64,000 nt of DNA from Verrucomicrobiota bacterium (GTDB lineage Bacteria > Verrucomicrobiota > Verrucomicrobiia > Opitutales > UBA953). Within the stretch, counting starts at the first letter, position 1. Every line of letters begins with the position of its first letter. Under the pieces are notes generated by a model. It was not told where the DNA came from. It worked only from the letters and a program-made list of their open reading frames with translations, and did not search any database. The DNA is taken from contig SUVQ01000008.1 in NCBI GenBank assembly GCA_015061905.1, positions 25,867-89,866 on the forward strand, written 5' to 3'. Positions 39,441-60,531 of this stretch are shown here, in pieces. The position numbers were made by a program, and so were the translations under genes.

Positions 39441-39455
39441 CTCTTCGCGCTGAAT

Positions 39456-39493
39456 AAAAAACGGCTTCGGGAACGTTCCCGGAGCCGTTTTTT
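39456..39493. terminator. Bidirectional terminator centred on the palindrome CGGGAACGTTCCCG
   Basis: aaaaaacggcttcgggaac|gttcccggagccgtttttt. Confidence 0.85.
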
Positions 39494-39525
39494 ATTTGAG
39501 AGATAAGAGGCGTTCCCGACCACCG

Positions 39526-43853: not shown

Positions 43854-43892
43854 AAAAAAACCGCGTTCCCGCACGGAGCGCGGTTTTTTTTT
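43854..43892 (+). terminator. Terminator after rpsI containing one CGTTCCCG
   Basis: aaaaaaaccgcgttcc-cgcac-ggagcgcggttttttt. Confidence 0.8.
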
Positions 43893-48808: not shown

Positions 48809-49648
48809 TTACGGAGATTCCTTCAATTCGTAGACGACGGGAACGACGAAGGCGGCGGGAAGCGCGGAGCGCAGCTCGGCGGGAACGCAAAAATCGGCGG
48901 CGACGCGACGAAGCGTTTCCTCCGCTCCGGAAACAAGCGATCGGTGCGCTCCGGATTTTTCAGTCTCGATACTTTTGATTTTCCCGCAAATACCGATTGA
49001 AACGCGAAGAAAAACCGTTCCCGAGCGTCCGTTGCGTCGTGCCGCCTTCGGATAGAATTTTTTGCGGGAGACGGCTTCGGCAAGTGCGCCGTAAATGGTT
49101 TGCTCGGCGGCGGCACGTGCGGCTTCGTCAACTGCGGGAACGCTTTCGGGCGGCGGCTGACAAGCCTGCTTTGTTTGCGGTTGCGGCGCCGGCGGCGGGA
49201 TTTTTTCCTCCGGGCTTTCCGTCTCTTCCGGCATTTCTTCTGCCGTTTTTTCCTGTTGGATTTCCGCTTTCGGCACTTCTTCCGCAACAGTTTCGCGCAA
49301 GGCGGATTCGTCAATTTTTTCAAATCCAGCTTCCGGCGGCTCCGGTTTTTGCGAAACTTCCGGTTCGGGCTTCGCAGGTGAAGATTCCGCTTCGACGGGA
49401 GGCTCTTCCGGCGCGGTTTCGATTTCTTCGGCAACAGGCGTGGGAACGTAATTTTGAAAACGCACGGCGATGCGCGCGGGAACGTATTGCGCCGTTTCTG
49501 CGGCTTCATTTTCCGCTTCCGCGCTTTTTTCGGCAACCAAAGCGAGCGTTCCCGCAAACAAAAGCGTGCAGACGGCAACGGAGCCCAGAGAACTCAGGCG
49601 CTCCGCGTCTTCAGTCGTTTTTTTCAACCATGAAAAGCAGATTTTCAT
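48809..49648 (-). CDS. tonB: TonB family energy transducer
   Basis: N-terminal TM, Pro/Glu-rich linker, C-terminal YPKAARRNGRSGTVFL. Confidence 0.85.
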   Translation of the reverse strand: MKICFSWLKKTTEDAERLSSLGSVAVCTLLFAGTLALVAEKSAEAENEAAETAQYVPARIAVRFQNYVPTPVAEEIETAPEEPPVEAESSPAKPEPEVSQKPEPPEAGFEKIDESALRETVAEEVPKAEIQQEKTAEEMPEETESPEEKIPPPAPQPQTKQACQPPPESVPAVDEAARAAAEQTIYGALAEAVSRKKFYPKAARRNGRSGTVFLRVSIGICGKIKSIETEKSGAHRSLVSGAEETLRRVAADFCVPAELRSALPAAFVVPVVYELKESP

Positions 49649-50021
49649 TTCCCTGTTTTTTAGCTTCGTCCATCAGGTTCATCACGGAGCCGAACGGCGC
49701 GGTTTTATCGGAAAAAACTTCAAAAATTTTTCCGGCGTTTTCCCGAAGGGCAGTTTCCAAGTCGACGGGCGGCGTTTCGACTCCGTCGAAAAAAATCGTT
49801 CCCGCGGCATCAATCGTAATCGTGCAAACGGGTGTTTTTTCTTTTTCGTCAACGTGCTTGGCACTTTCGGCGTCGGGCAAAAGCACGTCAAATGCGGGCT
49901 TGGCGAAAGTCGTTGCGACGATGAAAAAAATTAAAAGCATGAAAATGACGTCGATGAGCGGCGTCAGCTCGATGCTGATTTCGTCGTCGATTTCAAAATC
50001 GTTTATTTCGTGGCAATGCAT
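49611..50021 (-). CDS. exbD: Biopolymer transport protein ExbD
   Basis: LTPLIDVIFMLLIFFIV; start MHCHE at 50021. Confidence 0.92.
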   Translation of the reverse strand: MHCHEINDFEIDDEISIELTPLIDVIFMLLIFFIVATTFAKPAFDVLLPDAESAKHVDEKEKTPVCTITIDAAGTIFFDGVETPPVDLETALRENAGKIFEVFSDKTAPFGSVMNLMDEAKKQGNENLLFMVEKND

Positions 50022-50031
50022 CTTTTTATAA

Positions 50032-50179
50032 GTGATAGGGGATGGTTGATAACGGATAGGTAAAAACTGATAACTGATAGCTGATAAGTAATACCGAAAG
50101 CTCATCAAAATGATTACGACTTTTCACCTGCCGGTTATCAGCTTTCCCCTATCCGTTATCAGTTTTTACTTATCAGTTG
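50032..50179. repeat. 7-bp-periodic inverted element (TGATAAC-type) at exbB/exbD junction
   Basis: tgataacggatagg (50047) pairs with cctatccgttatca (50148); supplies the exbB stop. Confidence 0.85.
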
Positions 50180-50803
50180 TTCCTTATCATTTTTCTTATT
50201 TTTCGCGATGGCGGCGGCGCGGTAAGAAAATTCGACGGCGACAATCATGTAGCCGAACAATTTGTTGCGCAGGTAAAACAAAACGGCGAGCGTGGGCACG
50301 GCGATAACGATGCCGAGCACGGTCGTCCAAAGTGCTTGCCCGATACCGAGCGCGAGGCGCGCGCTGTCCGTAGCGGCGTTCCCGCCGGAGCCGAGCACTT
50401 CGAAAACTTGGATAATTCCGAGCACCGTTCCCAGCAAGCCGAGCAGCGGAGCCGTTGCCGTAATCAGGCGCAAGGTTGTGAAGCTCCGTTTGGTTTTGTA
50501 AAAGTATCGATGAAAAAGATACGCGGATTCGGCGCGCAAATCGTCGGAATGGTGACGGTGTTTCGTTGCAATGTCTCGCACAACGCACACGAGCGGATTG
50601 TTCGGCAAAACGGACTCGTCAAAAAGCAAATCGGCGTTCCCGTCTTCGACGTTTTTGAAAAATCGGCGAAACTGAAAATCGACGAGGCAAAGTTGCAGAT
50701 AAATTTTTACCGAAAGAAAAACGGCAAGCAAAAGCGCAGCGGCAAGCGGGATTCCCACAGGACCGAGCTTTTCGTAATATTCGGCGCAGTAGTGTTGTAT
50801 CAT
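50159..50803 (-). CDS. exbB: MotA/TolQ/ExbB proton channel protein
   Basis: APLLGLLGTVLGII..F, GIGQALWTTVLGIVIAVP. Confidence 0.92.
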   Translation of the reverse strand: MIQHYCAEYYEKLGPVGIPLAAALLLAVFLSVKIYLQLCLVDFQFRRFFKNVEDGNADLLFDESVLPNNPLVCVVRDIATKHRHHSDDLRAESAYLFHRYFYKTKRSFTTLRLITATAPLLGLLGTVLGIIQVFEVLGSGGNAATDSARLALGIGQALWTTVLGIVIAVPTLAVLFYLRNKLFGYMIVAVEFSYRAAAIAKNKKNDKEQLISKN

Positions 50804-50833
50804 TGGGTTTTGTAAGTTGAAGATCGGTTTATG

Positions 50834-50911
50834 GAACCACGGAATACACGGAATTCACGGAAAGATTTTTTTTGTTCGGAGTTTCCGTGTTTTCCGTGCA
50901 TTCCGTGGTTC
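50834..50911. repeat. 9-bp-periodic inverted element (CACGGAA-type)
   Basis: gaaccacggaatacacggaattcacggaaa ... tttccgtgttttccgtgcattccgtggttc. Confidence 0.9.
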
Positions 50912-50920
50912 TTTTTTTCA

Positions 50921-52330
50921 TTAAATTTCAATTTTGTAGGTGGCAAGTAACGACAAAAATTCGAGGTCGTGCGTGATGAGTAGCACTGTGTTCCCGCGTT
51001 CGGCGTAGGTGTGAAGCATGCGCGCGATGATGCGCATATTGCGCCCGTCGAGCCCGCTGGTCGGTTCGTCGAGCACGAGCAGCGACGGTTTTTTCATCAA
51101 AACAGAGGCGATGACGAGGCGTTGTTTTTCGCCGCCGGAAAGCGATTGCGGGTGGCGTTCCCGTTTGTCGTCGAGCCCGATTTCGCGGAGCAAATCAAGA
51201 GCCTCGCGCTCGGCTTCCTTTTCCGGAAGCGGCGAAGCGGAAACGAGCTCCTCAAGCACGTTGCGCATGTAAAGCTGAATGTCGGTGTTTTGCATAACGA
51301 AGCCGCCGTCGTCGAGCAGGCTCGCGGCTTTCGCGGGAACGCCGTTTCGGAGAATCGTGCCGCCGTTTTTGCGCGGAAGCTTCAGAAGCCCCGTAATGAT
51401 TTTTGCAAAAGTCGTTTTCCCTGCACCGTTTTTTCCGACAACGGCGGTAATCGCGCCGTGCGGAATCCGAAAATCCCGCGTGCCGTCAAAAATCGCTTTT
51501 TCCGTGTTCGGGTATTTGAAAAAAAGATTTTTGCAAACCAACGCGGCGGGAACGCTTTCCGGAATTTCTTTGAGCGGCGGATTGGCGGAAACGCGCACGT
51601 CGCGCAAACCCAAGGACGCATCGCCGTTGTTTTCAAGCTCGTCGAGTGCGTTCCCGCCGGGTGCTTCGAGGCGGCGCACGATTTTCCCTTCGTTCAAAAT
51701 CAGAATTTTGTCCGGCACGCCGCGAAGCCAGTAAATGCGGTGATCGACAACGACGATGGTGAATCCTTCGCGCTTAAGTTCGCGGCAGAGCGCGGCGAGC
51801 TCTTCCGTCGCTTCGGGCGAAAGATTCGCCGTCGGCTCATCAAAAACAAGCACGCACGGGCGCATCGCGATAGCCGTAGCGATGACGGTTTTTTGCTTTT
51901 CGCCGGACGAAAGCCCGAAAAGGCTGCGGGAACGCAAATGCTTGAGCCCGAGGCGCTCAATCGCTGCGTCCGTGCGGCGCAAAATTTCTTCGCGGGAAGC
52001 AAGCCGCCATTCGAGGCTTCCGGCAACTTCGCTTTCGACGGTCATCGACAGAAACTGGCTATCCGGATTTTGAAAAACGGAACCGACGATGCCGGAAACT
52101 TCTTCGAGCGAAGCGGGCGCGTTCCCGCCGATTTTGACGGTCCCGCGGAGCTCGCCGCGAAAATGAAACGGAATCAGCCCGTTGAGCACGCGCAACAGCG
52201 TGGATTTTCCGCAACCGGACGGACCGGAAATCAGCAACACTTCGCCCGCGCCGAGCGAAAAGGAAATGTCCGTCAGCGCGTCTTTTTTCGCGAACGGATA
52301 ACGGTAAGAAAGGTTTTCAATCAAAAGCAT
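50921..52330 (-). CDS. ECF-type transporter ATPase with two ABC domains (A-A' fusion)
   Basis: GPSGCGKST / LSSGEKQK / DEPT and GKNGAGKT / LSGGEKQR / LDEPTSGLD; start MLLIE at 52330. Confidence 0.92.
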   Translation of the reverse strand: MLLIENLSYRYPFAKKDALTDISFSLGAGEVLLISGPSGCGKSTLLRVLNGLIPFHFRGELRGTVKIGGNAPASLEEVSGIVGSVFQNPDSQFLSMTVESEVAGSLEWRLASREEILRRTDAAIERLGLKHLRSRSLFGLSSGEKQKTVIATAIAMRPCVLVFDEPTANLSPEATEELAALCRELKREGFTIVVVDHRIYWLRGVPDKILILNEGKIVRRLEAPGGNALDELENNGDASLGLRDVRVSANPPLKEIPESVPAALVCKNLFFKYPNTEKAIFDGTRDFRIPHGAITAVVGKNGAGKTTFAKIITGLLKLPRKNGGTILRNGVPAKAASLLDDGGFVMQNTDIQLYMRNVLEELVSASPLPEKEAEREALDLLREIGLDDKRERHPQSLSGGEKQRLVIASVLMKKPSLLVLDEPTSGLDGRNMRIIARMLHTYAERGNTVLLITHDLEFLSLLATYKIEI

Positions 52331-52344
52331 GGGAAAAAAGTCGG

Positions 52345-52436
52345 AACCGCGAATGAACACGAATTTTCACAAATTGTTTTTGAAGTATGTATTTTCAAAG
52401 ATGTTTCATTTAAAAACTTCGCGTTCATTCGCGGTT
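52345..52436. repeat. 9-bp-periodic inverted element (CGCGAATGAA-type)
   Basis: aaccgcgaatgaacacgaa ... ttcgcgttcattcgcggtt. Confidence 0.85.
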
Positions 52437-52441
52437 TCTTT

Positions 52442-53281
52442 TTAGTGAAGAAAAGTCGTTGCGGGAACGGGCAGCATGAATTTTAAGGTTAAAACGGCTA
52501 CAGCGGCGGAAGTCGCGAACGCGAGCACGCACCAATCGCGGGAACGCATCCGGTGCTCTGCCGCACAAATACAACGCTCGCTGCAACCGACGCGCCGCAC
52601 TTCGCACATCAGCACAAGATTGTCCGCGATGCGCAAAGTGCGCACGCATACGGGAACGACAACATAACGCAAAAAGCTCAGCGGCGACGCGACGAGCGAG
52701 AAGAAATTCATCTTCCGCCGCCGCACGCGCAGGCTTTCGTAAAGTTGGCGAATGTCGTCGACAAAGCTCGGCACAAAACGGCAACACACCGTCAGCGGAA
52801 TAAAAATGATGCGCGGCAGGCGCATTTTCCGCATTACGGAAATAAATTCCTGATTGTCAAACGTCAACCCGAGCGCGAGAAAAACATTCATGCTTACCGA
52901 AATCCGCAGAAACGGAAGAAGCACGGTCGCGAAACCTTGGTCGCCGAGCACAGAAGCTAAGCGCAGAAAGCTTTCCCGCGTGCTTTCCTCCGGCAAAAGC
53001 GGCGCGCATTCCCGCAAAATCCAAACAAAAGCGGGAATGAAACAATACGCCATTCCGAGCATGAGAAACGTTGCCGCATACATCGCGAAAACGGGCTTGA
53101 AGCGACGCAAATTCAGCACGTAAACAAAGGTCAGAAAATTGACGGCAACAAGCAGACGCCAATCATTCAGCGCGACCGAGCAACACGACGCAAGCAGGGA
53201 AACGACAAGCTTAGTGCGCATGTCGAGCGTCGCGACAAAAGGCTTTTTTGTATTTTCGGAATCAATACGTTTGGGCTTCAT
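52442..53281 (-). CDS. ECF transporter transmembrane component T
   Basis: LDMRTKL, hydrophobic segments, RFVP..DDIRQLYESLRVR; start MKPKR at 53281. Confidence 0.82.
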   Translation of the reverse strand: MKPKRIDSENTKKPFVATLDMRTKLVVSLLASCCSVALNDWRLLVAVNFLTFVYVLNLRRFKPVFAMYAATFLMLGMAYCFIPAFVWILRECAPLLPEESTRESFLRLASVLGDQGFATVLLPFLRISVSMNVFLALGLTFDNQEFISVMRKMRLPRIIFIPLTVCCRFVPSFVDDIRQLYESLRVRRRKMNFFSLVASPLSFLRYVVVPVCVRTLRIADNLVLMCEVRRVGCSERCICAAEHRMRSRDWCVLAFATSAAVAVLTLKFMLPVPATTFLH

Positions 53282-53334
53282 CTGATTTTTTGAAAGAAAA
53301 ATTAACGAACAGTGAATAACGCATTCTTCAAAAT

Positions 53335-53913
53335 TCATCGTTCCCGGATGAGCCCGGCATGACGAAGTTCCTTCACGAATTTGTAGCCGGCGGGAAGCCC
53401 GACGAGCACGCTCCCGCAATAGCCGAGCGCAATCATGAACGCTCCCGCCGCAAAAAGTTGCGCATTTTCCCGCAGGAAAACAAAGCTCATGCCGAGCGCG
53501 ATCCCGCGGGAAAACAAATCATACATCGCCACGCCGACCAAGACACTCAAGGTGTTTTTGTAGCCGCCCGTCGCCGCAATGATCCAATCACTTAAAATCG
53601 CCGCGAGCAAATTCGCGGGAGCGAGAACAATCATCAGCGAACCCGACATAAAAAACGAAATCACGACGTTGATCAGGCAATACAGGCAAAGCACGCCGAA
53701 TTTGCGCACGCGGCAAACCAGCACGACGAGTAGCGCCGTCGTCAACCCGTTGCGGATAAAAAGCGCAATCGGATTCGGACCGCCGCCGACGAGGCTGACG
53801 GCAAGCCCGGAAATGCGAATGAGCGCGGAAAAAATCCCGACGAGCACGAGATGCTCCGTCGTCCAATAAAATTTTTTCAACGCGGGAACCGTTTTGGCGG
53901 GAACGTCGCTCAT
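53335..53913 (-). CDS. MptD-family putative ECF S component
   Basis: WTTEHLVLVGIFSA, RVRKFG, FVKELRHAG; ~6 TMs. Confidence 0.78.
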   Translation of the reverse strand: MSDVPAKTVPALKKFYWTTEHLVLVGIFSALIRISGLAVSLVGGGPNPIALFIRNGLTTALLVVLVCRVRKFGVLCLYCLINVVISFFMSGSLMIVLAPANLLAAILSDWIIAATGGYKNTLSVLVGVAMYDLFSRGIALGMSFVFLRENAQLFAAGAFMIALGYCGSVLVGLPAGYKFVKELRHAGLIRER

Positions 53914-55349
53914 GCGTTTGCCGCCTCCGCCGGAAGCATTCGCGGGCGATTATGCCCGCCGTGCGAGCCGCGCCCGAGCGGATTTGCGTTCCCGTGCGGC
54001 GGCGTTGCGCTTCCGGTCGCGTTCCCGCATTTTCCGAAAAGGATTTTTGCGATCATTCCCATGACGAGCGAAATCAGCGTCACGTGCCAGTATTCGCCGA
54101 GCGGAGAAAGCTTGTAGCGGTTTTCTCCGTCGGGAACGAGAATACCGGCGCGTATCCAGTTTTTCCATACAGCTTGCGCTTCTCCGGAAAGCAGTTCCGC
54201 CGAAATTTTCCCGGGCTCGAGAAATCCGAGTTCGAGCTGATGCGTAACAACGTTTTTGAAACGGATTCCCGGATTGTCGGGAACGGCGACCATCAGACCT
54301 TTTTTCCCTGCGGCGACGGTTTCCGTATATTTTTTCAAATCCGGAATCTGCATAAAACTGTAGCCGCCGAGGAAGCCGCCCGCGCGCGAGCCGAACGGCA
54401 CGAGCTCCATGCCGGTTTTCGTCCCGTGGTTATACCAATTGCGTTCGAGCGGCGTGCGTCCCCAGTGCGTCATCGAAAGGCGCTTCCAACCGAGGCGCGT
54501 CAGGCGTTCCCGCGCCGTCATAAAAAGCGCGTAGCGTTCGTCATAGCTCAAATCTTTTCCCGCGCGCGCAAGGCTCGTTCCCGGGAGCAGTTTTAGCTGG
54601 TAAAGGTCTGCGCCGTCCACGGGAACGACTTCCGTAATCATGCGCAAATCCTCGTCCCAAAGTGCCGGCGTTTGTCCGGGAAGCCCGTAAATAAAATCGA
54701 GCATGAGCGCAATTTTTTCTCCGCCGATTTTTTTGACGAGCGAAAGGCGATCGACGAGTTCTTCCTTCGACATGATTCTGCCGAGCTTGCGGCGCAGCTC
54801 CGTGTCGAAAGTTTGCACGCCGAAGGAAAAGCGGTTCACGCCGTTGTCGACGCAGGCGCGGATTTTTTCTTCGCCGAAATCGCTCGTGCGCCCTTCGACG
54901 GTAAACTCGTAATCCGGCGCGATGCGGAAATTTTTATGAATAAACGAAACGAGCGCGGCGAGGTTTTTGGCGGAAAGATCGGTCGGCGTTCCTCCGCCGA
55001 AATAAACGACGTCGATCGTTTCTTCGGCAAGCTGCGGCGTTCCCGCGAGCGCGTTTTTCATTTCCGCAAGCACGCTTGTCGTGTAGCCGTCGAGATCGGA
55101 AGTGCGCGTTGCGTTGGAATAAAAACTGCAAAACGAGCAGCGATGCAGGCAAAACGGCACGTGCAGATAAATCGCGCGGCGTACGGTGCGTTTGGGTGAC
55201 GCGGCGGCTTGCGCCCACGCTTCCTGCGGGTCCGGCGGCGGCGCGTTCCCGTGGCGGCGGAAATTCTCCGTGTGATTGAAATGCTTTTTTTCTTCAAGCC
55301 GCGCAATCACGTCTGCCGGAGCTTCGGGAAAAAGAAAATCTTCAAACAT
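53910..55349 (-). CDS. HemN-like radical SAM protein, HutW/ChuW-like (heme processing)
   Basis: YLHVPFCLHRCSFC, YFGGGTPT, GVNRFSFGVQTF, YGLPGQT; operon context with TonB receptor and flavodoxin. Confidence 0.8.
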   Translation of the reverse strand: MFEDFLFPEAPADVIARLEEKKHFNHTENFRRHGNAPPPDPQEAWAQAAASPKRTVRRAIYLHVPFCLHRCSFCSFYSNATRTSDLDGYTTSVLAEMKNALAGTPQLAEETIDVVYFGGGTPTDLSAKNLAALVSFIHKNFRIAPDYEFTVEGRTSDFGEEKIRACVDNGVNRFSFGVQTFDTELRRKLGRIMSKEELVDRLSLVKKIGGEKIALMLDFIYGLPGQTPALWDEDLRMITEVVPVDGADLYQLKLLPGTSLARAGKDLSYDERYALFMTARERLTRLGWKRLSMTHWGRTPLERNWYNHGTKTGMELVPFGSRAGGFLGGYSFMQIPDLKKYTETVAAGKKGLMVAVPDNPGIRFKNVVTHQLELGFLEPGKISAELLSGEAQAVWKNWIRAGILVPDGENRYKLSPLGEYWHVTLISLVMGMIAKILFGKCGNATGSATPPHGNANPLGRGSHGGHNRPRMLPAEAANA

Positions 55350-55370
55350 AAGAAGCTTGGTCGAGGGATG

Positions 55371-55477
55371 GTGAATAATGAATAACGAATTGAATTCGGC
55401 TTCCGCCGAAAAAAGTTCTAAAAGTTTTCGCGAAGCGAACGCACTGCGTTATTCGTTATTCACTATTCATTATTCAC
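55371..55477. repeat. 7-bp-periodic inverted element (TGAATAA-type)
   Basis: gtgaataatgaataacgaa ... ttattcgttattcactattcattattcac. Confidence 0.9.
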
Positions 55478-55974
55478 TAAAAAAGATTTCTGAAAGCGGA
55501 CTGAGCGGCTTCAAGATCGGCGGCATCGGGATGCTTCGCGGCTTCTTCCCAGCGGCGTAAGCGTTCCGGGTTCGGCGAATGCGGATGCTCGGCGGGAAGT
55601 TTCGACATCCACGAAGTCAGCTTCGGATCAATCGCGCCCTGACACCAGAATTTGGCGACGACTTCGCAGCCTTCGCCGAGCAATTTCGTTCCCGCCTCGA
55701 ACGAATCCGTCGCATGTTGCGAATGCGGATACGCTCCGAGCGTGAAGAAAATGCCGACTTTTTTTCCTCGAATTTTCGGCATGTAAGCCGCCATTTCCGT
55801 GTTCGCCGTGCCGCGATCCACCCAGTAGCCGACGACGACGAAATCGTAGGCGTCGGGCTCCGGTGCTTCGCTCACGGGAAAAATGTCCGTTCCCGCGGGA
55901 AGGACGGCGTGAATGGCTTCCGCGATTTTGCGCGTGTTGCCCGTTTTTGAAGAATAAACGATGAGGGTTTTCAT
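55477..55974 (-). CDS. Flavodoxin family protein
   Basis: IVYSSKTGNTRKIAEAI, GYWVDRG, FFTLGA. Confidence 0.9.
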   Translation of the reverse strand: MKTLIVYSSKTGNTRKIAEAIHAVLPAGTDIFPVSEAPEPDAYDFVVVGYWVDRGTANTEMAAYMPKIRGKKVGIFFTLGAYPHSQHATDSFEAGTKLLGEGCEVVAKFWCQGAIDPKLTSWMSKLPAEHPHSPNPERLRRWEEAAKHPDAADLEAAQSAFRNLF

Positions 55975-55980
55975 GTTTTT

Positions 55981-56020
55981 TGGGTAACTGGGAACTGGTA
56001 ATTAGTGGTTGGGAATTGGG
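55981..56020. repeat. 7-bp repeat (reverse complement of GTTCCCA/GTTACCA family)
   Basis: tgggtaactgggaactggtaattagtggttgggaattggg. Confidence 0.7.
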
Positions 56021-58231
56021 TTAAAATTCATATTTGAGCGACGCCCAAAAGCTGCGCCCGGGCTGAAGGTAATCGAGGTGCGGGAGCTCGTAGCGTTTGT
56101 CCAAAATATTGTCGATGCCGACTGCGAGCGTAAGCTTTTCAAAAAATGCGCTGTCGCTTTTGTCAAAAACATCGAGCCCGATTGCAAAATTAAGCGTTGC
56201 CCAGCCGGGCTTGCGCTGAGTTTTTGAGCCGCCGGGCGCACTGACATCGGAGATTTTCTCTTCGGCGGCGGCGTTCCCGCGCAGATTAAAATCCGCCCAC
56301 CAGTTGCGATTGCTTTCGGTGTAAGTCGCAAGCACGCCGGCTTTTCCGAAAATTTCCGGCTGCCCGGTGTCGTAAGTCGAGCCGGAAGCGTTGTCGAAGC
56401 GGCGGCGCAAAAACGTGGCAACGGCGTAGGGTTTTATCGCGGCATCTTTCCCGAGTTCGAAAAGATAAGCCGTCGAAAGTTCCGCACCGAAGCTTTTTGC
56501 GGAATCGTAATTGACGAACCAAACGGACGTTGCGCCCGTTCCCGCGACGGCTCTGGTTTCCGTGCCGATGTAATCGTCGGAATCCGTGTAAAAAACGGTC
56601 GCGTCGAGGCTGAAGTTTCCGTTGTCGTAGCGTGTTCCGAGTTCGTAGCTGATGCTTTTTTCCGGCTCGAGATTCGGGTTCGCGTGTGTTTCCGTGCTTG
56701 CCATCGCGGAGCCGATATAAAGCTCATTAATCGAAGCGTAGCGATAGCCTTGCGAGACGGTTCCGCGAAACGTCCAATTCTCGATTTGCGAGTTTACGAG
56801 CGAGAGCGAAAATGTCGCGTCCGCGTCTTCCTTGCTTTGTTGCGGGAGCGTTTCAACGGTCGTTCCCGCGTTTGTTCCCGCGCGGCGGACGACGTGCGAC
56901 GTGCCTTCGTCGAACTCGTTTTTGACGTAAGTGCCGCGCGCACCGAGAACAAGATTCCAGCCTTCGGCAAAATTCCATTCGTCCTGCGCAAAAAGCGCGG
57001 CGGTCAAAATGTCCGCGTCGTAATCATTCGTGCGCGTCATATCGACGACGTAACGCGTTCCCATCGGGAGCGTCATCCAATTTTGGGTGGTCGTTTCTTC
57101 GTGCGAATCTAATTTTACGTAATCAATTTGCGCGCCGACGATGAGATAGTGCGTGTCCGCAATCGAAAAATCCGCCTGTATTTCCGCTCCGTAGGCGTCG
57201 TGGAGGTTGCGGCGATCTGCGTTCACGTTAATCGTCATCGGCGCGACCGTCTGCGTAATGTCTTGGACAAAATGTTTGTCCGTTTTTTGAAAATAAGCGT
57301 CTGCGCGGAATTTCACGAAAGTTTCGGAAATATCTTTTACTTCAAGAAAAAGTCCGATTTTTTCGCGGTCCCAGCGCGGGAGCTCCATGAATAGTAAGTC
57401 GTCGCCGGAAGCGACTTCCGAGCGACCGGCGAAAGATTCGATTTTTAATCCGAAGCTCGCATTTTCCGAAATGTCGTAGGCGAGATAAGCACTTGTGTTT
57501 TGAAAACGATAGGACGTGCGGTCCACGCGCCCGTCGGGCGATTCGATGTCGCCGTGGTCTTCGTCGGAAAACGAAACGCGCGCGGAGAAATCGCCGTAGC
57601 GCGCATTCAAATCGTAGTATTGATCAAGCCCGCGCGTTCCCGTGTCGCCGCGCACGCTCGCGCTCCCGTGAACGCCTTCTTTCCCGGATTTCTTCGTGAT
57701 AATATTAACAACGCCGCCGATCGCCTCCGAGCCGTAAAGCACCGATGCCGGACCTTTGATGACTTCGACGCGCTCAACGTCCTGAACCGACATTAAAAGC
57801 GGCGCGCCGTTCATGCCTTTGGTTTCCGAAATTCTTTGCCCGTCGACAAGAATCAGCACGCGCTGATTGCTTTCGCCGCGAATATTCACCTGCTTAAAAC
57901 CGGGCGTTCCATTGGCTTCGACCTGCACGCCGGGGACGTCGTCGAGCAAATCTGCGACCGTCGCGGCGGAACTTTTCGTGATTTCATCTCCGCTGACAAC
58001 GGCAACGCTCATTGGCACGTCCGCCATTTCCATTTCGTGCTTGGCGGCAGTAACGCGCACCGCTTTTCCGGTGATTGCTTTTTGCGCGGGAACGTTTTCC
58101 GCCTCCGCTGCTTCGACGCTTTCATTCGCCGAATTTTCCGGCGGCGTTCCTGCCGATTCCTGCGCCCAAAGCGCAACGCAGGGTAGCCACGCTACGCCCG
58201 CGAAGATTAAAAAAGAAGGGTTGATTTTCAT
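56021..58231 (-). CDS. TonB-dependent receptor, probably heme
   Basis: Signal peptide, plug LILVDG..VERVEVIKGPASVLYGSEAIGGVVNIIT, HANPNLEPEKS, C-terminal PGRSFWASLKYEF. Confidence 0.92.
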   Translation of the reverse strand: MKINPSFLIFAGVAWLPCVALWAQESAGTPPENSANESVEAAEAENVPAQKAITGKAVRVTAAKHEMEMADVPMSVAVVSGDEITKSSAATVADLLDDVPGVQVEANGTPGFKQVNIRGESNQRVLILVDGQRISETKGMNGAPLLMSVQDVERVEVIKGPASVLYGSEAIGGVVNIITKKSGKEGVHGSASVRGDTGTRGLDQYYDLNARYGDFSARVSFSDEDHGDIESPDGRVDRTSYRFQNTSAYLAYDISENASFGLKIESFAGRSEVASGDDLLFMELPRWDREKIGLFLEVKDISETFVKFRADAYFQKTDKHFVQDITQTVAPMTINVNADRRNLHDAYGAEIQADFSIADTHYLIVGAQIDYVKLDSHEETTTQNWMTLPMGTRYVVDMTRTNDYDADILTAALFAQDEWNFAEGWNLVLGARGTYVKNEFDEGTSHVVRRAGTNAGTTVETLPQQSKEDADATFSLSLVNSQIENWTFRGTVSQGYRYASINELYIGSAMASTETHANPNLEPEKSISYELGTRYDNGNFSLDATVFYTDSDDYIGTETRAVAGTGATSVWFVNYDSAKSFGAELSTAYLFELGKDAAIKPYAVATFLRRRFDNASGSTYDTGQPEIFGKAGVLATYTESNRNWWADFNLRGNAAAEEKISDVSAPGGSKTQRKPGWATLNFAIGLDVFDKSDSAFFEKLTLAVGIDNILDKRYELPHLDYLQPGRSFWASLKYEF

Positions 58232-58315
58232 GTTTTTCTCGTCGTGTCGCGCACTCCGGTCTGTCCGGTCGCGGGCGAGAAAGTTGTTTTTGAGTCGCTC
58301 CGTGTTTCGGTCGCG

Positions 58316-58456
58316 TTATTGAGTGAGTCGGATTTTTTCCTTCACTTCGATTTGAACGACCTTCCCGTCGTGAACCACCACGGTCAGTTCGCCGAACTTC
58401 AGCGAAGCGAGCTGATCCGCAATTTTTTTCATAACTTCCTGCGAAAGCGTTTTCAT
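58316..58456 (-). CDS. YezD/DUF2292 family small protein (46 aa, absent from ORF track)
   Basis: Hand translation MKTLSQEVMKKIADQLASLKFGELTVVVHDGKVVQIEVKEKIRLTQ. Confidence 0.85.
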   Translation of the reverse strand: MKTLSQEVMKKIADQLASLKFGELTVVVHDGKVVQIEVKEKIRLTQ

Positions 58457-58479
58457 CGTAAAGAGCTTTCTATTAATAA

Positions 58480-58494
58480 TGAGACTAAGTCTCA
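58480..58494. promoter_or_regulatory. Putative Fur-like 7-1-7 operator upstream of heme operon
   Basis: Perfect inverted repeat TGAGACT-A-AGTCTCA abutting a minus-strand TTGACG (58500-58495). Confidence 0.6.
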
Positions 58495-58702
58495 CGTCAA
58501 GATGTAAATCGCAACCGTTTTGGTTTGTTTTTTTGTCGCTCTACGGTTCTCGCGGGAAAAATTTTCATTTTTTCTTTCGGAAATCTCTATCCCTCCTCAA
58601 TTTTTACGCTAAAAAAAACGCGCTCCGCTACAAAGACGCGAAGCGGAAAAACTTAGCGAATTTGCGGCGGGAGCGCGCCGGGGAAAAGGAATGATTTCCC
58701 GT

Positions 58703-60407: not shown

Positions 60408-60526
60408 ATAACGAACAGTGAATAATGAATAGTGAATAATGAACAACGCGGTGCTTAAAATTTTTGCCCTCGAAAGGGCAAAAATCTTCGCAATAAACTA
60501 TTCGTTATTCATTACTCACTATTCGT
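60408..60526. repeat. 7-bp-periodic inverted element (TGAATAA-type) at ahpC/ahpF-like junction
   Basis: gtgaataatgaatagtgaataatgaa ... ttcgttattcattactcactattcg; central hairpin tttttgccc-tcgaaa-gggcaaaaa. Confidence 0.88.
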
Positions 60527-60531
60527 TGATT

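Follow-up and report, generated by a model that had tools for sequence, protein, structure and literature searches.

Among long simple repeats, heptamers are in many bacterial genomes the most over-represented. Two very large protein families, PF05635/TIGR02436 and GxxExxY, are not known to have an assigned function. The two subjects meet in the 64,000-nucleotide stretch of an Opitutales genome analysed here ("the window"), where five junctions between the genes of a heme-type uptake and degradation operon each carry a different periodic repeat element. These five elements are probably gene-less copies within a class of palindromic intercistronic cassettes, dispersed and repeat-armed, that would be selfish or near-neutral; other copies enclose a PF05635 or a GxxExxY gene.

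Heptamers have been described as dominant long simple repeats, intergenic, close to the upstream open reading frame (ORF) and polymorphic in steps of 7 nt (PMC4692102; Mrazek 2007, which that paper and PMC4679880 cite). In Xanthomonas and Nostoc the repeats are GGGAATC/GGGGAYT (Rehm et al. 2015, PMC4692102); those of Xanthomonas lie 28 nt from the upstream ORF (versus 160 nt), form 70-75 convergent (inverted) pairs and differ by 7-nt indels between close strains. TAACTGA repeats are found in Beggiatoaceae, Cyanobacteria and Bacteroidetes, mostly as direct repeats 5' of start codons, and their stops in all frames were noted (MacGregor 2015, PMC4679880). G-quadruplexes or translational regulators have been proposed as roles for heptamer arrays (PMC4679880, PMC4692102). 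The arrays of the present genome (G000) are likewise tandem 7-nt repeats, strongly intergenic, mostly located between co-oriented genes and nearer to the upstream ORF (median -3 versus 24 nt), with copy number changes between close relatives (indels of 7, 9 and 14 nt). The unit TAACTGA (equivalent to TGATAAC) recurs among them, and ACTGGGG, at C14:91531, is what we take to be the unit of the cyanobacterial STRR1 repeat (CCCCAGT). Unlike the published arrays, most are paired in long hairpins, with a conserved core or a cargo gene in the loop, and many unit sequences coexist in a single genome, of the phylum Verrucomicrobiota. No link of heptamer arrays to PF05635 genes, nor of periodic arms to GxxExxY genes, was met in the literature searched; it is absent from the heptamer-repeat papers, as checked in PMC4679880. 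The elements are a variant of known heptamer-repeat phenomena: what is new is the tie to two uncharacterised gene families.

A small PF05635 ORF within a hairpin-bounded insert is known from the intervening sequences (IVS) of 23S rRNA, which are regarded as selfish inserts and are excised by RNase III (Coxiella burnetii, PMC4990558); IVS ORFs have also been found in rRNA genes of the Candidate Phyla Radiation, and the PF05635 domain was there termed functionally uncharacterised (PMC11270868). The gene-bearing cassettes of G000 share with IVS, which are regarded as horizontally acquired and exist also in ORF-less versions, a stem of terminal inverted repeats around a small PF05635 ORF. They differ because the host is a junction of a protein-coding operon and not an rRNA helix, because the arms are periodic and because the five elements have no ORF; moreover, IVS excision needs RNase III, for which no gene could be detected in the genus of G000. 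Repetitive extragenic palindromic (REP) sequences, in the form of REP/BIME or of REPIN-RAYT systems (PMC3116915), are also dispersed extragenic palindromes, located at gene 3' ends or between cistrons and possibly forming mRNA hairpins. Here, in contrast, no single palindrome is conserved, the arms consist of tandem units and the associated genes code for four-helix-bundle (4HB, PF05635) or GxxExxY proteins, not for a Y1 transposase. Ssn GIY-YIG nucleases, specific for single-stranded DNA, have been tied to their own NTS/SRM repeats dispersed around genes (Chenal et al. 2025, PMC11893778): a small nuclease family is paired with a dispersed repeat, a precedent for a sequence-specific nuclease-repeat partnership. 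The GIY-YIG fold is different from both the PD-(D/E)XK-like GxxExxY proteins and the non-enzymatic four-helix bundle, and the abstract of that paper mentions neither periodic arms nor stop/start placement.

The five elements had been noticed by a sequence-only reading of the window: all are present at the positions then given, and all begin 0-12 nt past the upstream stop codon or, in one case, include it (Table 1). This case is element 5, where the TGA of exbB (50159-50161) and the last ~12 codons of the gene fall within the 5' arm, so that the element supplies the stop, as had been claimed. Four of the five are long hairpins, with arms of tandem 7-, 9- or 10-nt units: RNA folding energies range from -36 to -52 kcal/mol (z -4.6 to -10), and for each of them none of 200 shuffled sequences folds as well. 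Element 2 has arms of 19-20 nt (in sense orientation, 5' arm 55451-55476 and 3' arm 55371-55390), with 90-95% complementarity (-37.9 kcal/mol, z -4.6), and its first unit adjoins the flavodoxin stop TAG (55477-55479). Element 3 starts 5 nt past the ecfT stop; its 23-nt arms (52414-52436 and 52345-52367, 91%) are built of the 10-nt units CGCGAATGAA/CACGAATTTT/CACAAATTGT, with CACAAAT also present (-35.9 kcal/mol, z -5.9). The onset of element 4 is 9 nt past the ATPase stop, with arms of 30 nt (50882-50911 and 50834-50863, 90%; -46.2 kcal/mol, z -10), while in element 5 30-nt arms at 90% lie inside a 60-nt pair at 73% (-51.7 kcal/mol, z -6.7). Element 1, which on the sense strand reads TAA, then CCCAATT CCCAACC ACTAATT ACCAGTT CCCAGTT ACCC, does not fold (0 kcal/mol) and looks like a solo 3' (pyrimidine-rich) arm; it is shorter by two units (14 nt) in the related loci L001 and L005. 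If at least three tandem 7-nt units are required for the heptamer class, elements 1, 2 and 5 belong to it, with 3-6 units, and elements 3 and 4 stay outside because of their 10- and 9-nt units. No PF05635/TIGR02436 ORF lies in any of the five loops.

Arrays similar to those of the heme operon are dispersed across the window and the genome. Over the whole genome 76 period-7 arrays are intergenic and 6 coding, and none is found in shuffled intergenic DNA; 33 period-8 and 9 period-10 arrays were also found, the remaining periods being close to background. Inverted repeats with arms of at least 16 nt are 243 in intergenic DNA (13.5% of the genome) versus 92 in coding DNA. The same units recur: TGAATAR (~20 arrays), TGATAAC (with its rotation TAACTGA), TTAAAGA/TTAGAGC, CTGGGAA/CTGGTAA and TTAGGAA, along with the 8-mer CGCAAAG and the 10-mer CACGAAT. 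The junction elements belong to a genome-wide class and are not specific to the heme operon.

Genes were called by a simple custom procedure (1607 genes, 86.5% coding), for which start positions are approximate. The association with stop codons holds genome-wide: 21 of the 25 heptamer hairpins between co-directional genes start from -20 to +12 nt relative to the stop end, with a median of -3 nt, and in 13 cases hairpin and stop overlap. To the next start the median gap is 24 nt; this gap exceeds the distance from the upstream stop in 22 of the 25 (p=1.6e-4). None lies between divergent genes, though such regions make up 22% of intergenic bases. Heptamer-bearing junctions tend to cluster, as 33 of 65 have a neighbour at most 3 junctions away, against 14.4 +/- 4.5 expected; two operons, at C6:187.7-192.2 kb and in the atp region (C10:333.9-342.3 kb), are loaded as heavily as the heme one. 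Arm polarity is the same in every family and on both strands, with a purine/A-rich arm at the 5' side and a T-rich arm at the 3' side. The 5'-arm heptamers contain TGA, TAA or TAG, which, repeated with period 7, place stops in all three frames.

All three PF05635 genes of G000 lie between inverted arrays, which set in at the upstream stop and reach to a short distance from the following start. The same holds for ~21 of ~21 intact PF05635 copies in eight related genomes of two genera, always between inverted arrays of 6-8-nt units starting at the upstream stop, the unit sequence differing locus by locus. In a sample of 81 genomes of the phylum, 47 of which have PF05635, periodic inverted flanks were found at 17 of 28 PF05635 loci versus 2 of 231 size-matched control genes of G000 (Mann-Whitney p=6e-13). 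The outliers among controls include GxxExxY (PD-(D/E)XK-like) genes of small size, whose surrounding arms have units of 8-10 nt. Every one of the six GxxExxY genes in G000 scores 12-25 for flank inverted repeats, against a 95th percentile of 12.75 in the controls. As a separate observation, TTAGAGC/TTAAAGC arrays flank a 152-aa gene (C3:22661-23253), within a same-strand run of small genes, possibly a prophage module; the cargo of cassettes may be wider than the PF05635 and GxxExxY families.

All five elements of the heme operon match the arms of some gene-bearing cassette. Element 1 is identical at 39 of 48 positions to the 3' arm of a 4HB cassette of genome G064, including a trailing CAAAAAAC. 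The arms of element 2 are nearly the same as those of the 4HB cassette found between atpD and atpC in genome G087, where TGAATAR arrays enclose a 127-aa ORF (26 of 26 identical positions in the 5' arm, 21 of 23 in the 3' arm). Element 5 resembles the arms of the atpD/atpC 4HB cassette of G000 itself, with 27 of 32 positions in the 5' arm and CTATCAGTTATCAGTTTTTACCT in the 3' arm. For elements 3 and 4 the counterpart is a GxxExxY cassette of G000 (C6:77640-78032), with which both share the start AAAAAGAAACC(A/G)CG(G)AATG; the arm start of element 3, AAAAAGAAACCGCGAATGA, also matches its 5' arm (AAAAAGAAACCACGAATGA). Gene-less TGAATAR copies and the gene-bearing form have in common the inner-arm motif AACGCAGTG...CACTGCGTT.

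The proteins carried by the cassettes fall into clades which track locus and arm type. At the atpD/atpC junction, TGATAAC-armed (G000, G064) and TGAATAR-armed (G087, G129) cassettes code for proteins with 53-56% identity, whereas at atpA/atpG the cassette proteins of these species (G000, G064, G087) share 96-98% identity, which indicates that at atpD/atpC gene and arms were swapped together. At the orthologous lolE/lolD-like junction the GxxExxY cassette of G000 (C6:77640-78032), with CACGAAT arms, has as its counterpart in G064 (L038) a 4HB cassette with CTGGGAG/CTGGTAA arms: two unrelated cargo families thus share site and architecture. Genome G187 (L012-L019), from another family of the order, contains a ~290-nt element with inverted ends of TGAATAA arrays, in at least 8 copies and in both orientations, with a conserved core of ~230 nt (GGGGTTTGCTCCGCTTTGCGGGCAAACCC...); an Rfam scan of this core and of related loci gave nothing significant.

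Gene order in the heme operon is kept in five related genomes, with rSAM proteins 84-99% identical, and presence, family and size of the elements vary at each junction among these relatives. The ATPase/exbB junction measures 117 nt in the window and 100 nt in both L001 and L005, which lack one 9-nt unit; lengths of 18 nt and 2 nt are found in L004 and L002, respectively; in L003 it reaches 251 nt, because a TGAATAR element is nested in the loop of a CACGRAA hairpin homologous to element 4. L003 has two such TGAATAR elements, ~98% identical and in opposite orientation, one on each side of exbB. Four different states are seen at the ecfT/ATPase junction: L004 has 18 nt there, and L003 and L002 carry elements of other types. 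Between S component and ecfT, where the window has a half-relic, a full TGAATAR hairpin is present in L003 and an unrelated 46-nt spacer in L004. The exbB/exbD junction of L002 is 24 nt long, and L002 exbB matches the window ExbB only up to residue 207 of 214. Element 2 has a different number of units in L005, and in L001 and L004 an unrelated TTAGAGC-type element takes its place.

The L001 element at the flavodoxin/rSAM junction (~215 nt, L001 9786-10009) is 95-100% identical to that of L004, although the flanking genes of L001 and L004 are only 72-87% identical; L001 and L005, in contrast, have flanking genes 97-100% identical and unrelated junctions. Identity switches at the stop codon and, on the other side, at codon 3 of the rSAM gene, and the flanking tracts appear too short for ordinary homologous recombination. 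Other changes occur in place. Array indels relative to a 93%-identical relative measure 7, 9, 14 and 49 nt, and the inner ~80 nt of the exbB/exbD hairpin (window 50095-50178) are found in L005 and L001 (98%-identical relatives) as the exact reverse complement, with one mismatch: the loop has flipped between the inverted arms. Over the ~36 kb aligned between the window (27782-64000) and G001, at 93% identity, no clean insertion was found, only unit indels and the known replacement. TGAATAR arrays are present in four of the eight species of the genus (13-79 hits) and absent from the other four; among six genomes sampled from a genus of another family, two have them (73 hits in G187, 7 in G135).

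Cassettes and empty hairpins alike span from the upstream stop to ~10-30 nt short of the following start, in the orientation of the host operon, and at the same junctions they are gained, lost, swapped and nested among relatives, with unit slippage and loop inversion as later evolution in place. Cassette arms are inverted arrays of short tandem units, and two subclasses may be distinguished: the one with 8-10-nt units, enclosing a GxxExxY PD-(D/E)XK-like gene, would include elements 3 and 4, and the other one elements 1, 2 and 5. Most of the five would be decayed or non-autonomous copies, and one a solo arm. Terminal inverted repeats, as would be expected of a MITE (a miniature transposable element with inverted-repeat ends), are present, but the "full" versions carry 4HB or GxxExxY genes and not a known transposase. 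The cassettes may persist as selfish or near-neutral inserts riding on the transcription of the host operon. The stop-rich 5' arm, with TGA, TAA or TAG every 7 nt and all frames closed, would give a clean end to upstream translation, and pairing of the arms would loop the insert out, keeping the stop and the next start close; stop/start junctions could therefore be tolerated, or targeted, as insertion sites.

Several observations weigh against this picture. The data showed no transposition event, no target-site duplication, no excision scar and no enzyme activity, and the cargo proteins have no demonstrated role in mobility. Within the genus of G000 cassettes are mostly inherited vertically at fixed sites, so their movement there is rare. 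Genome G187, with its 73 TGAATAA-array hits and its multi-copy element, has no PF05635 gene, so that TGAATAA arrays need no such gene in their own genome; nor was a clear TGAATAR-armed 4HB gene seen in G000, despite its ~20 TGAATAR arrays. Among ~12 TGAATAR copies there is no common target sequence, consistent target-site duplication or common flank, although two L003 copies share the left flank CTAAAAC. PF05635 was discarded as an obligatory partner of TGAATAR arrays, given the arrays without gene in G187 and the genes without TGAATAR arrays in G147 and G165. A 204-aa ORF of G000 (C3:108194-108808, minus strand) matches PF05635 weakly, under threshold (26.6 bits), and is followed, right after its stop, by a TGAATAR-like array; it is a possible diverged partner for the TGAATAR arrays, a family otherwise orphan in G000.

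A more specific proposal, which we regard as doubtful, is that the periodic arms are recognition arrays for the wrapped proteins, either with one unit for each subunit of an Avd-like four-helix bundle or as phased sites of the GxxExxY nuclease. Cargo cassettes would then act in trans on gene-less hairpins with the same units, as a protein-plus-repeat system which makes, renews or exchanges inserts at stop/start junctions, and the 23S rRNA intervening sequences would be its rRNA-borne branch. The co-variation of protein clade and arm unit and the interchange of cargo at one junction are compatible with this proposal, without showing it.

The sequence-only reading had offered two explanations: mRNA stem-loops tuning segmental stability and stoichiometry, as REP elements do, or a shared insertion mechanism at stop codons. 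According to the former, the hairpins would be functional elements, kept as barriers to 3'-exonucleases or as processing sites. The stems are indeed so stable in the sense RNA that they would form in the transcript, they are intercistronic as REP/BIME are, five elements and the relic of a sixth are found in the eight junctions of the heme operon, and the clustering of heptamer-bearing junctions in few operons is also in its favor. Yet selection on stems in the sense RNA should favor G:U over A:C in arm mismatches, and 69 non-terminator hairpins (periodic or other) between co-directional genes feature 50 G:U versus 61 A:C (p=0.34); 18 terminator-like hairpins based on the GTTCCCG motif do show the excess (14 versus 4, p=0.03). 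A gene for RNase III (PF14622) was found neither in G000 nor in any of 19 genomes of the genus, and a tblastn search of G000 with E. coli Rnc (an approximate query sequence) gave only a weak match, to LeuA. Because of both the mismatch counts and the lack of RNase III in the genus, a selected role of the REP type is unsupported. The variation at every junction among relatives with the same operon also speaks against it, as does the presence of the same elements in unrelated operons (atp and lol, for example). A sense-strand U-tract is lacking in all four operon hairpins, which do not qualify as Rho-independent terminators; terminator-like matches at elements 3 and 4 (52419-52434 and 50894-50908) are on the plus, antisense strand only. 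A REP-like function is therefore judged unlikely, and any effect on heme-operon mRNA would be a by-product, not a conserved design. Insertion at stop codons by a putative shared mechanism fits much better, given the genome-wide position bias, the wrapping of cargo genes and exchanges bounded at the stop and at codon 3.

Two further explanations were considered. Nothing may have moved at all: heptamers would have arisen locally by slippage near stops, the second arm by template switching, and cargo would be coincidental. Unit polymorphisms of 7, 9, 14 and 49 nt between close relatives do show active slippage, to which the heptamer excess has been ascribed in print (Mrazek 2007, as cited in PMC4679880 and PMC4692102). 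Slippage does not account for the ~50-nt non-repetitive core (GTGCTAAGGnTTTTGCC-loop-GGCAAAAnCTTTGAAG) that, together with the inner-arm motif AACGCAGTG, is common to TGAATAR copies at many loci, nor for the near-identical copies at two junctions of L003, with a nested copy, the identical element of L001 and L004 between diverged flanks, the multiple copies of one 290-nt element in G187 and the excess of periodic flanks at cargo genes; a purely local origin is very unlikely. The hairpins might otherwise be REPINs, moved in trans by the Y1 (IS200/RAYT-like) transposases of the genome. G000 does code for a Y1_Tnp protein (C5:41765-42217, 77.6 bits) and has an ORF with HUH/Y motifs near C5:81.3 kb, and REPs are likewise placed at gene 3' ends. 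The Y1 genes, however, are flanked by non-periodic hairpins of their own (CCGTAGGTAAC..GTTACCTACGG and GGAGAACAGGCGTC..), of which the former is practically unique in the genome, and heptamer arrays are not found beside them as cognate flanking repeats; the many unrelated arm sequences do not converge on a single REP consensus. This origin also appears very unlikely.

Independently of these hairpins, the second Y1 gene region (C5:~81150-81950) has a hairpin type, GGAGAACAGGCGTCYCGCCTGTTC, found also at other loci, and is possibly a small REP-RAYT system. Hairpins with flanking A/T runs that are built of the hyper-abundant GTTCCCG/CGGGAAC motif (window 39453-39496 and 43854-43890, for example) behave as real terminators, and a CGGGAAC heptamer array at C11:77414 hints at a link between this motif and the heptamer families. 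As for RNase III, two sister genera lack PF14622 as well, but 13 of 16 other families in the order have it, as does G187. Its loss was considered, and discarded, as the cause of hairpin accumulation: arrays are many in G187, which has the enzyme, and half of the genus, though devoid of RNase III, has no TGAATAR arrays. The enzyme was also discarded as the one processing the stems, as no gene was found. The genus-wide loss offers a separate clue to how a lineage copes with essential mRNAs that contain long double-stranded stems.

If the repeats are the arms of PF05635 and GxxExxY cassettes, the heptamer puzzle and that of the two gene families merge into one testable question, namely whether the protein binds or cuts the arms around it. 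In annotation, this would mean that long hairpins at operon junctions are not to be taken for operon-specific regulators, and that the short C-terminal tail and stop of a host gene can come from an insert, as for exbB here.

The genome is an Opitutales metagenome-assembled genome (MAG) of 2.08 Mb in 17 contigs, with 52% G+C and 98% completeness; its nearest public relatives are Opitutales MAGs of the ruminant rectum, one of which is labelled 'Candidatus Spyradenecus'. Pfam and NCBIfam scans of the heme operon agree with the gene names previously assigned from the sequence.

Table 1. Repeat elements and genes of the heme operon (positions in the window), with the PF05635 cassettes of the genome
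Feature	Position	Strand	Description
Element 1	55975..56020	-	One-armed array, ~6 imperfect heptamers; fills the receptor/flavodoxin junction
Element 2	55350..55479	-	TGAATAR-armed hairpin (TGAATAA-type inverted arrays 55371-55477); flavodoxin/rSAM junction
Element 3	52331..52441 (hairpin 52345-52436)	-	Arms of 10-nt units; ecfT/ATPase junction
Element 4	50804..50920 (hairpin 50834-50911)	-	Arms of 9-nt units (CACGGAATN); ATPase/exbB junction
Element 5	50022..50195 (repeats 50030-50195)	-	TGATAAC (=TAACTGA)-armed hairpin; exbB/exbD junction
Half-relic of a TGAATAR-family element	53282..53334	-	GAAGAATGCGTTATTCACTGTTCGTTA; S-component/ecfT junction (sixth)
Further TGAATAR-armed hairpin (C14_86276)	60408..60527	-	Outside the operon, after a thioredoxin-reductase-like gene; -55.5 kcal/mol
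PF05635 cassette of G000	atpA/atpG junction		TTAGAGC/TTAAAGC arms
PF05635 cassette of G000	atpD/atpC junction		TGATAAC arms
PF05635 cassette of G000	third junction		GCTGAAG/AGCTTAAG arms
Heme-type uptake and degradation operon	48809..58231	-	Nine genes; Pfam and NCBIfam scans
TonB-dependent heme-type receptor	56021-58231	-	Best NCBIfam match a heme/hemoglobin receptor subfamily, under cut-off
BilS-like flavodoxin	55477-55974	-	Pfam/NCBIfam
HutW/ChuW-like radical SAM protein (rSAM)	53910-55349	-	383 bits versus cut-off of 400
ECF S component (Trep_Strep)	53335-53913	-	Pfam/NCBIfam
EcfT	52442-53281	-	Pfam/NCBIfam
Double ABC ATPase	50921-52330	-	Pfam/NCBIfam
ExbB	50159-50803	-	Pfam/NCBIfam
ExbD	49611-50021	-	Pfam/NCBIfam
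TonB	48809-49648	-	Pfam/NCBIfam

In the 471-nt spacer 5' of the receptor gene (window 58232-58702, minus strand) a small ORF of less than 60 aa, MKTLSQEVMKKIADQLASLKFGELTVVVHDGKVVQIEVKEKIRLTQ, is conserved, being present in L001 too.

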